Assembly: GCA_948468045.1 (NCBI GenBank)
Contig: CAOKGO010000002.1
Location: forward strand, 13 to 64,012
Direction of reading: 5' to 3'
Source: an uncultured Clostridium sp.
Lineage (GTDB): Bacteria > Bacillota > Clostridia > TANB77 > CAG-508
Length of the DNA stretch: 64,000 nt
In this document: positions 42,285 through 56,010 of the stretch, piece after piece
Layout: each line of letters begins with the position of its first letter
Numbering within the stretch: position 1 is the stretch's first letter
Notes under the pieces: generated by a model
What the model saw: only the letters and a program-made list of their open reading frames with translations
Database searches by the model: none
What the model was told of the DNA's origin: nothing
Position numbers and translations under genes: made by a program

Positions 42285-43223
42285 ATGAAAAAGAAAGCAA
42301 TTGTCATAACAGGATTTATGGCTTTAATTTTATTAGCTAGCAATTTGTTAGCAGCATCAAACTTGAAAGCCAAAGCAAGTAGTTCAGTAACAGAATTAAA
42401 AGGTGGGGAAGAGGTAACAGTAACCTTAAGATTTGATGAATATCAGCAAATCAAAAATGGAATAAATGCATATAAAGCAACATTAGAATATGATAAACAA
42501 ATATTCAAAGAAGTAACAGAAAAAGATTTTGTATGCCAAAATGATTGGGAAGAATTAAAATATAATAAAGACACTGGTGAATTTGTAGCTATTAAAAAAG
42601 TAGGAAGTAACACACCAGAAGATGTTGTAAAACTTACATTAAAAGCAAATGAAACTGTAAAGGCAACTACTACTGATATAAAAATAAAAGATATTGTAAC
42701 ATCTGAAGGAGAAAGAGACATACAAATAGCAGAAACAAAAGTAACTATAAATGTAATTGAAGAACAAACAGAACAACCAGATAAACCAGAACAACCAGAA
42801 CAAGAAAAAATTACTTCACAAAAATATACTATAACAAAAGACTATATCGAAAGAATTTTACCAAATACAACAGTAAAACAATTTAAAGAAAATGTAACAT
42901 TAGAAAATGTAACAACTGATCCACAAATGGTATTTACAGATAGTGAGGGAATGCCATTAGATGAAAATTCTATAATTACAACTGGAACTAAAGTAAAAAT
43001 AGGAAAAACACTACAATTTACTCTTGTTGTAATAGGAGATATAGATAATGATGGAGATATTGGAATTAATGATATAGCACAGCTTAAATTACACATTATT
43101 GAAAAACAAGCATTAGAAAATGTAGCATTAAAAGCGGCAGATTTAGATAATGATGGAGATATTACAATTGGTGATTTAGCACAAATGAAATTAATTCTAA
43201 TTGGTTTATTTGAATTAGAATAA
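42285..43223 (+). CDS. adaptor scaffoldin-like protein: signal peptide, cohesin-like domain, linker, C-terminal dockerin
   Basis: The cohesin-like stretch is GGEEVTVTLRFDE...INAYKATLEYDKQIFKEV. The linker is PDKPEQPEQ. The dockerin loops are DIDNDGDIGINDIAQLKL and DLDNDGDITIGDLAQMKL. Confidence 0.65.
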   Translation: MKKKAIVITGFMALILLASNLLAASNLKAKASSSVTELKGGEEVTVTLRFDEYQQIKNGINAYKATLEYDKQIFKEVTEKDFVCQNDWEELKYNKDTGEFVAIKKVGSNTPEDVVKLTLKANETVKATTTDIKIKDIVTSEGERDIQIAETKVTINVIEEQTEQPDKPEQPEQEKITSQKYTITKDYIERILPNTTVKQFKENVTLENVTTDPQMVFTDSEGMPLDENSIITTGTKVKIGKTLQFTLVVIGDIDNDGDIGINDIAQLKLHIIEKQALENVALKAADLDNDGDITIGDLAQMKLILIGLFELE

Positions 43224-43235
43224 AAAGCAAAAGAA

Positions 43236-46200
43236 ATGGAGGCTTCAAATACTATGAAAGATAAAATGAAAAAAATATTAAAAATTAGTATTTGTTTAAT
43301 TGTATTTCTAATATTAACATTAGGAGCTATTTATGCTACTAATGTTCTTTCATCAAAAGGAGAATTAAATGATGATGGTATCATAGATTATAAAGATGTT
43401 AATTTATTAGAAAGACATTTAATAAATTTGAGTATTTTGCCAGAAGAAAAAAGACAAAATGCAGATATGAATAGTGATGGACAAATAACTGTAACAGACT
43501 TATCTCTTTTAATTAAAAAGATAGAAAATAAAAGAGATTATACAGTAGAATTGCTAAATATAGATACAGAAAATTATTATCCAAAGAAGAATGAAAAAAT
43601 AGAAATTCAATTTGGAGCTAAAATAAACTATGATGATGTAGAAATAAAAAAAGCAATAATAAATAATCAAGAGTATACAGTAAAAAATGAGGGTGGAATA
43701 TATAAAATAGAACTAAATGTAGGAGAGCAATTTGGAAAGAAAGAGTATAATTTCACAAAAGTTATTTTAAATACAGGAGCAGAAGTAAAAATAGATAACA
43801 AATTTACTATCTGTGTTCTAAAAGAAACTCCTTATATAGAAGAAAGCAGTTATAAATTAGAAGAAACCTATGAAGGAAAAGCTTATATAAACTTTAATTT
43901 AGTTGATAATGATAATAGTATAACATCTGCACAATTAACAGTATATGAAGTTGGTGAAGAACAAACACAATCAGAAGATACAGAAACACAAATTGCACAA
44001 ACAAATATCAAAGCAGGAGAAAATAGAGAAGAAATAATAGTAGAAGATGGAAAAACTTACAGAGTAGAAATTTGTGTAGCTTATAATTCAGCACCAGATC
44101 CAATTGAAGGAAAAGACCATACAGACACTTCTCTTTTATATAGTAAAGAATTTACTATGGCATTAGACTATCAATTTAGTATAACTAATATCCATACCCA
44201 AAAGGATGGACATGAAAACAATCATTTTGCTAAAAAAGAAGCAATAGAAATAGCATTTAACAGTACCAACTTAGCTTATGAAAATACTAATAGTCCTAAC
44301 TTTGAGCCAAGTACAATTACAGTAAGTCAAAAAGAATATGAAGTAACTAAAGATGAAAATATGTACAAAGCAACTATTGATGGTTTAGAAAAAGTAGGAG
44401 AAAATACAATTGTAATAGAAAAAGTAAAACTAAAAAATGGAAAAGAATTCATATTAGGTTCAGGAAATACAGTAAATGTAACAATTGATGCTCAAAAACC
44501 AGTTGTATCTGAACTAAAAGCAGAAGAAAATGTACAAGAAAAAAATATAAAAGTAACATTCCACCTTGAAGATGAAGCAAAATCAATTCAATCAGCAAAA
44601 GTAGTACTTTATGATAGTGGGGAAAATGTTATAGCAAGTCAAGACATAACAACAGAAGAAATAGAAAATGGAAATGTGGAAAAAATCTTTAATACACAAA
44701 CAACAGATAGTTACATTATTAAAGTAATTGCAACTTATAAAGAAACAGAAGACCATATAATAACAGACAGTGTTTTATTTGAAAAAGTAGTTACTGCAAA
44801 TCGTTTTGCAACTATAAAAAAAGCAGTTGTAGAACCAATTAATACAGAAAAAAATAAAACAGTAAAAATTACATATGAAATAGAAACTAACAGTGAAAGT
44901 GAAGTTGCAAAAATCCGTGTCAATAACCTAGACTGTATTGCTACTAAAATAGCAGATGGAAGATATGAAATAATTGCAGAAGTAGGAGAAGAAGCAAAAG
45001 TATTAGAACTAATAGCTAGCAAAATCATTTTTGCTGACCAAACTGAAGCAATTGTAAAAAATACTGTAGAAGTAAATGTATTAAAAGATACACCAAAAAT
45101 TGAAGAAATTAAACAAGAAGACAATTTAGCTAAAAATCAAGTAACAGTTACCTTTACATTAGTAGATCCAGATAGTAGCTTTATCACAGGAAAAGTACAA
45201 TTATTAAAACCAGCAGTTGATGGGAATCCAGAACAACTAATTCAAGAACCAACTATTGAAAGAGATGGAGCACATGGAAGAGTACTTTTCGAAAATGTAG
45301 AAATTGACAAAGAATATACAGCAAGATTTATTGCAAACTATAATCGTTATCCAGAAGGTGACGAAAATATAGAAGAAAATCAAGTCATTCGAGAAGCAAA
45401 AATTATGCTAGTTGGTGACTATAACTTACAAGTAAGTGACATAAAAACAGCAAACAAAGAAAAAGACACAAAATATTTTGAGAAAAACGAAGAAATTACC
45501 CTAAGCTTTAATTGCACCAATGCAACCAGTTTCTTACCAGAAAAAGCAGTCATAAATGGAAGCGAATATAGTTTAACACGCACAGAAGGAACTAATATTT
45601 ACACAACTAAATTAGCAGGATTAGAAGAGAATGGTGTAAAAGAATACAAATTAGAAACCATTATATTAAACAATAAGAGATTTTTAGACGTAGAACCAGA
45701 ACAAAAAATAAAAATAGAAGTATTAAAAGAAAAACCAACCATTACCAGTTTTGGATACAAAGAAGACGAGACTGACAAAAATAAGGTGGTGGCAAGCTTT
45801 AACCTAAATGATATAGAAACAACTATCTCAAATGGAACCATTGTAATTTTAGATGACCATAAAAATGAAATCAAAACACAAAATTTAGTAGTAGGCAATA
45901 ATCAAATTACATTTGAAAAAATAGATAGTGAATACTATAACATTAAAGTAAAGGCTAATTATGACCTAGATACAAATGCTTTAGGAGCTGGAGAAAATGA
46001 ATACCAAGAACAAATATTATTACAAGAAGAAATTGATTTTACAGAACGAAAAATCCAACTAAAAGATATACAAGATGTAAGATTATACCATATATATTAT
46101 GGATTTCCAATGGAAGTAAAAAACATTGATAGTAATGAAATAATTGAAAATCCAGAAAATTATGTAGCAAAAGTAAAAATGAAAAATATGCCAGATATGC

Positions 46201-55257: not shown

Positions 55258-55272
55258 AGCAAAGGAGAAACT

Positions 55273-56010
55273 ATGAAAAAGATAGTAAAGTTAAGTTTAG
55301 TACTACTAATGACTATGTTTATGATAGGAAATGTATATGCAGCAAATGGGTGTGATGTAAGTGTAGAATCAAATAAAACCCAACTTAGTAAAGGTGAAGA
55401 ATTTGCAGTAGATTTTAAAATATCTAATATAAAATCTGAAAAAGGAATTATATCACTAGGTGCAACTTTAGAATATGATAAAGATAGTTTAGAATTAGTA
55501 AAAATGGAAGGGAAAAACGGTTGGGAAACACCAGCCGAAGGAGCTTCTTATAATCAAAAAAATGGAAAAATAGCTATTACTAGAAGTGGATTAGGAAAAA
55601 ACAATGAAACAGTTTTTACTGCAACTTTTAAAGTAAAAGAAACAAGCAAACAAAATCTTGTTGTAACATTAAAAAATGTTACAGTAGCAGATGGTGTGGC
55701 ACCAGCTACAGCTGAGCTTGCATATCAAAATATTACAGTAAAAGATGGAACTAAAAATCCAATACCAGGTGTTGATGATACTAATACAACCCCAAACGAA
55801 AATACATCAACAGGAAATAATATTGTTGCTAATAATTCAAATAAAACTTCTATGACAAATAATCCTTTACCAAAAACAGGAGGAGCATTAGCAACTGGAT
55901 TTGTACTAATAGTTATGATAGCAGTTTTTGTAGCTATAACATTATTTAGAAGAATGAAATTTATTGACAATGAAATAGATAGAGAGACAAAAAGAGAAAA
56001 TAAAAAATAA
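55273..56010 (+). CDS. cell-wall-anchored cohesin-like protein (LPXTG sortase substrate)
   Basis: Signal peptide. Cohesin-like segment GIISLGATLEYDKDSLELV. LPKTG at 55867..55881, followed by a hydrophobic segment and an RRMK tail. Confidence 0.75.
   Translation: MKKIVKLSLVLLMTMFMIGNVYAANGCDVSVESNKTQLSKGEEFAVDFKISNIKSEKGIISLGATLEYDKDSLELVKMEGKNGWETPAEGASYNQKNGKIAITRSGLGKNNETVFTATFKVKETSKQNLVVTLKNVTVADGVAPATAELAYQNITVKDGTKNPIPGVDDTNTTPNENTSTGNNIVANNSNKTSMTNNPLPKTGGALATGFVLIVMIAVFVAITLFRRMKFIDNEIDRETKRENKK

Follow-up and report, generated by a model that had tools for sequence, protein, structure and literature searches.

A 64-kb stretch of DNA from an uncultured, low-GC gut Clostridium (contig CAOKGO010000002.1; GC 28%), referred to below as the window, carries a cluster of genes which probably encodes a non-cellulosomal cohesin-dockerin relay holding two giant M26 zinc metalloproteases, of the IgA1-protease/Zmp-like kind, on the cell wall. 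All five open reading frames (ORFs) that a first-pass annotation had placed in the cluster were present at the same coordinates. They encode two proteases, two adaptors and an anchor, and between them contain three classes of cohesin (those of the anchor, adaptor 1 and adaptor 2) and two classes of dockerin, denoted DocP and DocA. The cohesins, dockerins and M26 protease cores are all genuine; the order anchor-adaptor-enzyme is one that we infer from conserved gene adjacency and natural gene fusions in relatives, which are uncultured gut Clostridia known chiefly from rodent-gut metagenome-assembled genomes (MAGs). Chance ORFs could be excluded because the two largest span 10.7 kb and 7.9 kb at 28% GC and because there are hundreds of conserved homologs.

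Modules of the five proteins

The anchor (245 amino acids (aa); 55273..56010, + strand) consists of a signal peptide, a cohesin at residues 27-160, an Asn/Thr-rich linker, a transmembrane (TM) helix and a conserved basic tail, with an LPKTG sorting signal at 55867-55881 (+). Pfam reported Cohesin (PF00963) at residues 30-143 with 47.1 bits. The C-terminus reads LPKTG-GALATGFVLIVMIAVFVAITLF-RRMK..., in which the hydrophobic segment is 23 residues long. Among 25 aligned homologs, P200 and G203 of the LPXTG motif were invariant and L199 nearly so, and every one of 171 anchor homologs combined a single cohesin with an LPXTG motif. An AlphaFold2 model of the anchor, made with the 25-homolog alignment, was a beta-sandwich with a predicted local distance difference test score (pLDDT) of 85-94 in the core, and nearly all of the top 50 Foldseek matches to it in the PDB were cohesins. 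The best was the C. perfringens GH33 cohesin 2vo8 (E 2e-8, template-modelling score 0.82), accompanied by the GH84C cohesin 2jh2 and followed by cellulosomal cohesins of types I, II and III. The cytoplasmic tail of the anchor (55900-56007) is unusually long and is conserved, with the consensus K-x-K-I-I-N-K-E-I-D-K (K-x-I-D/N-x-E-I-D-K; columns 301-320 of alignment A1).

Adaptor 1 (312 aa; 42285..43223, +) was assigned from Pfam, from class-specific hidden Markov models (HMMs) and from profile matches to solved dockerins and the NagJ cohesin. It begins with a signal peptide, and its cohesin at residues 24-163 (42354-42773) is followed by a Pro/Glu linker, a module that we call X at about residues 175-243, and an adaptor-type dockerin at residues 245-312 (43017-43220); the Pfam matches were Cohesin at 34-157 (33.8 bits against a cut-off of 24.1) and Dockerin_1 at 251-302, and more than 248 homologs had 58-73% identity. 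Adaptor 2 (399 aa; 54058..55257, +) has a signal peptide, an Ig-like domain at residues 47-118 (Ig_3/Ig_2/I-set in Pfam), a cohesin of the third class at 131-255 (Cohesin 131-242, 40.7 bits), the X module and an adaptor-type dockerin at 332-399 (Dockerin_1 338-389). It is the short form of a protein of about 1250 aa, composed of transglutaminase-like, Ig, cohesin, X and dockerin parts, that is present in most relatives. The X modules of the two adaptors are 73% identical at the DNA level (42902-43109 versus 54936-55143) and X is kept in more than 240 homologs, but this segment of about 65 aa had no match in Pfam or in a profile search of the PDB, and no FIVAR (X82) module, of the kind that precedes the dockerin in C. 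perfringens-type pairs, was detected. When the profile of the adaptor family was compared with the PDB it matched the dockerin 8x39 at 6e-10 and A. cellulolyticus DocCel5 at 1.6e-6, with further matches to C. cellulolyticum and C. thermocellum dockerins, to R. bromii Amy16 and to the NagJ cohesin.

Protease 1 (2642 aa; 32342..40270, +), defined by Pfam Dockerin_1 and M26_N, by alignment to 6xjb and by a repeat map, comprises a signal peptide, a dockerin at residues 31-101, four Ig-like units of about 200 aa and an M26 beta-helix at 1062-1357, followed by the catalytic region, with HEMEH at residue 1871, and one C-terminal beta-helix repeat at 2327-2642. Pfam gave Dockerin_1 at 36-96 and M26_N at E 7e-41. 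M26_C was not reported by Pfam for this protein, although its catalytic region still aligns to 6xjb, the S. pneumoniae IgA1 protease (E 1.5e-40 over about 1030 aa). The dockerin (32432..32644, +) scored 95 bits with the DocP HMM versus 16 bits with the DocA HMM.

Protease 2 (3559 aa; 43236..53915, +), defined by Pfam, by alignment to 7uvk and 6xja and by a repeat map, has the same order of parts: a signal peptide, DocP, four Ig-like units (residues 100-880), an M26_N beta-helix (903-1355) and an M26_C catalytic domain (1475-2156), followed by four C-terminal M26_N-like repeats of about 335 aa (2173-3528). Its Pfam matches were Dockerin_1 at 44-96, Peptidase_M26_N in four stretches (E 3e-39), Glug, and Peptidase_M26_C at 1475-2156 (E 4e-25). 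The dockerin, at residues 38-101 (43347..43538, +), has the F-hand loops ELNDDGIIDYKD and DMNSDGQITVTD, and the zinc-binding motif HETGH at residue 1853 (48792..48806, +) aligned to the HExxH of a solved IgA1 protease. Its alignments to 7uvk and 6xja extended over about 1170 aa (E 1e-43 to 1e-39); among solved IgA1 metalloproteases of Gram-positive bacteria, the two giants together matched 7uvk/7uvl (E 1e-43) and 6xja/6xjb/7jgj (about 1e-40), each over more than 1000 residues. For protease 2 a start at window position 43254, 18 nt downstream, is chosen by the gene callers used on other assemblies. The two proteases are colinear paralogs with 35% identity over about 2480 aa, and neither has an LPXTG motif; a signal peptide and a dockerin stand in its place.

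The first-pass annotation had named the kinds of module correctly. Matches were obtained with all of the HMMs (Cohesin, Dockerin_1, M26 and GLUG): Cohesin and Dockerin_1 exceeded the curated Pfam cut-offs across the three small proteins, and both giants matched Dockerin_1 and Peptidase_M26. In all four dockerin-bearing proteins PF00404 was above its cut-off and two duplicated Ca2+-binding F-hand loops could be read in the sequence. The description of a cohesin-like protein ending in LPKTG, a TM segment and RRMK was borne out by Pfam, the sequence and the AlphaFold2/Foldseek comparison alike; that of two proteins with a cohesin and a C-terminal dockerin, sharing a module before the dockerin and one of them with an Ig-like domain, agreed with Pfam and the 73% DNA identity. 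Every element proposed for the 3559-aa ORF (a dockerin after the signal peptide, Ig-like repeats, GLUG repeats and an HETGH Zmp/M26 core) was recovered, and its 2642-aa paralog does share the N-terminal dockerin. The fold assignments also stood, as the anchor model matched solved cohesins and the adaptor profile matched solved dockerins.

Probable pairing of cohesins and dockerins, from related species

Anchor genes were compared across 58 species-level loci, all from MAGs labelled uncultured Clostridium or Clostridia, mainly from mouse and wild-mouse gut catalogues and one from a rabbit. In about 50 of the 58, the gene immediately preceding that of the anchor is of the adaptor type, and its product ends in X-dockerin. 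DocA, found on the adaptors and, in sister species, on cargo proteins, is C-terminal and near-symmetric (...INDLAQxKL... twice). DocP lies at the mature N-terminus, has the pattern GELNxDGxIxYxDV...DMNxDGxITVTDL, and gave confident matches in M26 proteases only; class HMMs split DocP from DocA clearly (115 versus 22 bits and 108 versus 33 bits). DocP was preceded by or fused to a cohesin of the adaptor 1 type in all four species with visible upstream sequence (4/4). Such a cohesin gene is directly upstream of a DocP protease in the window, where the gap is 13 nt, and in loci L066 and L068; L066, from another species, has the same layout of a penicillin-binding protein (PBP) gene, adaptor 1 and a 3545-aa protease. 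Both modules occur in one ORF in L065/P0123, P0126, P0135, P0136, P0138, P0143 and P0144.

For a census of such fusions, residues 1-330 of protease 2 served as the query of an exhaustive HMMER search against 1.84 billion representatives, and 70 proteins were returned at E<=1e-30. A cohesin followed by DocP in one polypeptide was found in 55 of the best 150 representative clusters; 25 of these 55 were at least 2000 aa long, and HExxH was present in every one of the 25. The segment between the two modules comprises a low-complexity linker, an LPXTG motif (recognisable in 17 of the 55), a TM segment, a Lys-rich loop and a second TM segment with a ...YA-type signal-peptidase-like end, after which the dockerin begins. 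Three full-length fused examples gave both Dockerin_1 and M26 by Pfam. In the AlphaFold2 model of the fused protein P0144, the cohesin forms a sandwich, two long helices come next, and the dockerin, with three helices, is followed by Ig-like domains; pLDDT was 78-97 for the cohesin, dockerin and Ig-like domains and the predicted template-modelling score (pTM) of the single chain was 0.38, so that the model bears on the domain folds and not on docking. Fused precursors of 2000-4000 aa outside the window include P0269, P0268, P0276, L065 2293-7098 and about 50 other representatives.

In the chain that we propose, the DocP of a secreted protease would plug into the cohesin of adaptor 1, the DocA of the adaptors would plug into the cohesin of the anchor, and a sortase encoded elsewhere would join the anchor to peptidoglycan, giving a 1:1 series of wall, anchor, adaptor and protease. 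The cohesin of adaptor 2 might serve the paralogous protease, although this partner is a guess. Across the window and about 70 related loci, all 115 ORFs with a cohesin have exactly one (115/115), so the assembly would be a linear 1:1 tether and not a multi-enzyme scaffold. The cohesin, dockerin and LPXTG parts of the cellulosome-style hierarchy that had been proposed hold, and the system is not a true cellulosome.

The same comparisons bear on the idea that the N-terminal dockerins are structural Ca2+-binding EF-hand pairs with no partner, in which case the proteases would be secreted or held by an uncleaved signal anchor and the neighbouring cohesins would serve other cargo. Partnerless, stand-alone dockerin-like modules are common outside cellulosomes, a weak EF-hand_7 match was seen in Pfam, and P0141 and P0323, from organisms with a less AT-biased protein composition, have a TM segment and a dockerin with no detectable cohesin. 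Nevertheless, both F-hand loops are canonical, gene order is kept across species, and the sharing of one polypeptide by a cohesin and a dockerin in 55 representative clusters is hard to explain without an interaction, and so we regard a purely structural role as improbable.

Somewhat less improbable, but still unlikely, is a flat assembly in which all four dockerins bind the cohesin of the LPXTG anchor and the adaptor cohesins take dockerins encoded elsewhere, or each other's, to form chains or a lattice. Cross-specific cohesins are known from cellulosome biology, and DocA proteins of 1450-1600 aa with NPCBM or F5/8-type-C modules and no cohesin adjoin the anchor gene in sister species, where they presumably bind it directly. 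In locus L043 an anchor-type cohesin-LPXTG gene comes directly after a protease 2 gene of 94% identity, without an intervening adaptor. What speaks for the relay over the flat arrangement is that DocP and DocA are clearly separate sequence classes and that, across dozens of lineages, DocP has a cohesin specifically of the adaptor 1 type as its neighbour or fusion partner, with no case seen of fusion to the anchor type.

The cargo-type (non-adaptor) dockerin proteins of the window are the two M26 proteases only. In sister species (L009, L015-L028, L052-L056, L061) two sorts of protein are encoded next to the anchor. Those of the first sort, 1450-2050 aa long, combine a C-terminal dockerin with NPCBM and F5/8-type-C modules, the latter resembling carbohydrate-binding module (CBM) family 32; those of the second are the transglutaminase-like + Ig + cohesin + X + dockerin proteins of about 1250 aa. 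The NPCBM and F5/8-type-C modules match binding modules of the C. perfringens GH31, hyaluronidase and sialidase enzymes; no catalytic glycoside hydrolase (GH) domain was recognised in these dockerin proteins of relatives, only carbohydrate-binding modules. Because glycan-binding cargo occurs in sister species, the system as a whole is not protease-only, and the earlier suggestion that proteases are displayed in place of glycoside hydrolases applies to the window but does not extend to the wider system. These neighbours suggest that the system is aimed, in general, at host glycoproteins. The substrates of the window proteases are likely to be host mucosal glycoproteins such as IgA or mucins, and this is the least certain step of our interpretation.

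Several observations weigh against the relay as we describe it. The substrates of M26 family members are diverse, and mice lack human-type IgA1. There is no cohesin gene directly upstream of protease 1, and the partner of the adaptor 2 cohesin is suggested by protease-1-like genes adjoining adaptor-2-type genes (L018, L033, L040, L041) in which the protease N-termini are not visible. With its long, conserved cytoplasmic tail, the anchor could stay in the membrane. A scan for TLxTC and a tblastn search with related sortases found no sortase gene in the 64-kb window; five other species (L011, L032, L036, L066, L068) do have such genes, within or next to their homologous clusters. Lastly, chance in AT-rich DNA would account for the frequency of promoter-like sites upstream of the two adaptor genes, and the scan found 85 such sites against 95 expected from shuffled sequence, that is, no enrichment. 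A 19-bp perfect hairpin (inverted repeat I17; 56021..56062, +) just past the anchor stop codon is likely to be a transcription terminator closing the cluster; it was missed by a GC-based terminator scan. The operon structure is thus argued from short gaps and this one hairpin.

Genomic setting of the cluster

The cluster lies in the dcw region, past mraZ, rsmH and ftsL, with protease 1 between ftsL and a SpoVD/FtsI-like PBP gene. The PBP gene is split after codon 566 by an insertion of 21.1 kb (21,096 bp; 42023..63118, +) that contains the genes of adaptor 1, protease 2, adaptor 2 and the anchor, together with a large serine recombinase gene, ArsR and two P-type metal ATPases. Taken together, the pieces of the window PBP cover residues 4-663 of the PBP of L036, a rabbit-gut relative in which it is intact (663 aa). 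The junctions (42013-42027 and 63109-63128) read CAAGGAGGTG/AATGG on the left and CAAGCAGGTG/GTGTGG on the right, where the slash marks the break; they share the core CAAG(G/C)AGGTG, and the length of the insertion is divisible by 3. If the insertion were excised precisely at this core, the PBP frame would be restored as ...HQGGGVAAP.... The same break point was found in at least five other species, on the left side in L066 and on the right side in L009, L031, L032 and L054, and some of the species with it carry intact recombinase genes. In these respects the insertion resembles the skin-type intervening elements of sporulation genes, and spoVD was not mentioned in the literature that we found on intervening elements or serine recombinases. 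Within the insertion, 58259-63048 encodes an ArsR-family regulator, two heavy-metal P-type ATPases and HMA metallochaperone-like ORFs, a metal-resistance module beside the surface-display genes.

The 5' part of the PBP gene (40319-42022) contains three frameshifts in short homopolymers, at about 40510, 41570 and 41935. The resulting broken ORFs (73, 353 and 137 aa) recur in five independently assembled metagenome contigs, and the gene is therefore a real pseudogene and not the product of sequencing error. The large serine recombinase gene (56398-58039) is likewise divided, into ORFs of 179 and 374 aa, by a +1 frame change in an A6 run at GAAAGAAAAAACGG (56915-56937). Several assemblies, as well as a relative with 93% identity (L007), have exactly this split; L031 and L061 have intact copies of the gene. 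It may represent decay or slippage-prone phase variation.

Damage of this kind raises the question of whether the mobile element is dead and the locus on it a decaying remnant, not expressed as a working system. The three frameshifts in the host PBP gene and the one in the recombinase would fit such a remnant, as would the split uvrC, class-II aminoacyl-tRNA synthetase and peptidoglycan-binding genes and the fact that adaptor 2 is a truncated form of the protein of about 1250 aa. However, both giant ORFs and all three small genes are intact despite several frameshifted neighbours: 18.6 kb of protease ORF and the three cohesin genes are uninterrupted at 28% GC, identical in 14 independently assembled contigs and conserved in other species. 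Decay of the display genes is therefore, in our judgement, very improbable.

Other genes of the window that appear to be broken are at 23138-25076, 19335-21069 (- strand) and 27940-28623. The uvrC gene is in two ORFs in different frames, the class-II aminoacyl-tRNA synthetase (D/K/N type) is apparently in two overlapping ORFs, and a PG_binding_1 protein has several in-frame stops relative to a 227-aa homolog in L066; either the genome contains many pseudogenes or the region is error-prone. Stop-codon reassignment was rejected as an explanation for the splits in PBP, recombinase and uvrC, as the pieces are in different frames and most of the breaks are at short homopolymers. A plasmid origin was also rejected: a megablast search of 54000-58100 against PLSDB gave no match. 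Further upstream, the ORF at 8087-9022 has a weak match to Replic_Relax (replication-relaxation; E 4.5e-6) and may mark the remnant of another mobile element.

Related systems and a proposed route of display

Cohesin-dockerin assemblies are the textbook machinery of plant-fibre digestion, and versions for starch (the amylosome) and mucin (the mucinolysome) have been proposed only recently. In common with cellulosomes and the Ruminococcus bromii amylosome, the proteins described here have type-I-like dockerins with duplicated Ca2+ loops, cohesin beta-sandwiches and X-dockerin adaptors, and sortase-type anchoring is shared with ruminococci. Unlike those systems, the window has no multi-cohesin or CBM-bearing scaffoldin and no plant-polysaccharide CAZymes. 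Dockerin-bearing proteases do exist in cellulosomal organisms, for example 8x39.

The C. perfringens non-cellulosomal complexes of toxins and glycosidases (2vo8, 2jh2, 2o4e, 2ozn) provided both the closest structural match of the anchor cohesin and the closest sequence-profile match of the adaptor cohesin. They too have single cohesins, and their enzymes act on host mucosal glycoconjugates. Their modules, however, are inside large glycosidases and link enzymes to each other; a dedicated LPXTG anchor or adaptor, M26 cargo and an N-terminal dockerin are all absent.

The Limousia 'mucinolysome' (Akresi et al., Gut Microbes 2026, PMC12997984; bioRxiv 2025) is likewise a cohesin-dockerin surface complex of a gut Firmicute that is aimed at host glycoproteins. 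Its single-cohesin LPxTG anchor cSca5, which takes the C-terminal dockerins of adaptor scaffoldins, is similar to the anchor of the window, and some dockerin-bearing peptidases are present, as here. In contrast to the window, its scaffoldins have several cohesins (up to 12), its cargo consists mostly of GH enzymes whose dockerins are C-terminal, and M26 is not mentioned; the window has one cohesin per protein, two M26 proteases and the N-terminal dockerin, and belongs to another lineage (28% GC, rodent and rabbit gut MAGs). With the C. perfringens complexes, the amylosome, the mucinolysome and dockerin-bearing proteases already known, the general idea is not new. Our literature search found no description of M26/Zmp proteases carrying dockerins (a dockerin together with an IgA1 protease or Zmp was absent among the top-ranked results), none of a dockerin at the mature N-terminus as replacement or partner of an N-terminal LPXTG cassette, and none either of a cohesin and a dockerin in one precursor or of a strictly single-cohesin relay.

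The streptococcal M26 enzymes (IgA1 protease/ZmpA, ZmpB, ZmpC and ZmpD) are homologous to the window proteases over more than 1000 aa, through the M26_N beta-helix and the M26_C core with HExxH, and share with them giant size, variable repeats after the anchoring region and attachment at the N-terminus. They have neither cohesin nor dockerin, whereas the window proteases have no LPXTG of their own and protease 2 has four extra C-terminal beta-helix repeats. The streptococcal N-terminus comprises a signal peptide, LPXTG, two TM segments and a second signal-peptidase site, and is required for surface localisation (PMC3518915). In most of the clostridial relatives one precursor contains, in order, a signal peptide, cohesin, linker, LPXTG, TM segment, basic loop, second TM segment resembling a signal peptide, dockerin, repeats and M26; the fused relatives thus retain LPXTG-TM-TM, and this precursor is the known Zmp N-terminal cassette of streptococci, preceded by a cohesin and followed by a dockerin. 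The N-terminal position of the dockerin, which the first-pass annotation had called unusual, is so relative to cellulosomes but is accounted for by M26 ancestry, since streptococcal M26 proteases are anchored N-terminally through such a cassette.

In the fused precursors, sortase would fix the cohesin to the wall (where there is no LPXTG, the cohesin would remain in the membrane), signal peptidase would free the dockerin-protease, and the two pieces would dock again through the cohesin-dockerin pair. In the lineage of the window the cassette would have been split, so that its cohesin part became the adaptor 1 gene, with X-DocA in place of LPXTG-TM, and the protease retained its signal peptide and DocP only; the separate cohesin-LPXTG anchor would then take DocA. 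The conserved tail of the anchor resembles the loop between TM1 and TM2 of the fused precursors, which fits a common origin of the two and hints either at gene fission or at a role for the tail. We tentatively suggest 'cut and recapture' as a mode of display, an idea that we hold with rather less confidence than the relay itself: a cohesin and its cognate dockerin would flank LPXTG-TM-TM, and processing would give a wall-bound receptor and a released enzyme that docks again non-covalently. The window could then be the next evolutionary step, in which the system was split into genes, lengthened by a second relay and placed on a site-specific element that targets the spoVD-like PBP gene in several species.

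If it is true, 'cut and recapture' would explain how proteases with an N-terminal LPXTG are retained at the surface, with a cohesin-dockerin pair inside a single gene product, and the fused precursors offer a testable model for the long-puzzling N-terminal anchoring of the streptococcal IgA1 proteases. The small orthogonal pairs, with two dockerin and three cohesin classes, may also be useful for the engineering of surface display. For the uncultured gut Clostridia themselves, the plug-and-socket parts of the window appear to be dedicated to giant IgA-protease-like enzymes, and if these enzymes cut secretory IgA or mucins at the bacterial surface, this would bear on how commensals evade or reshape mucosal immunity in a standard laboratory animal.

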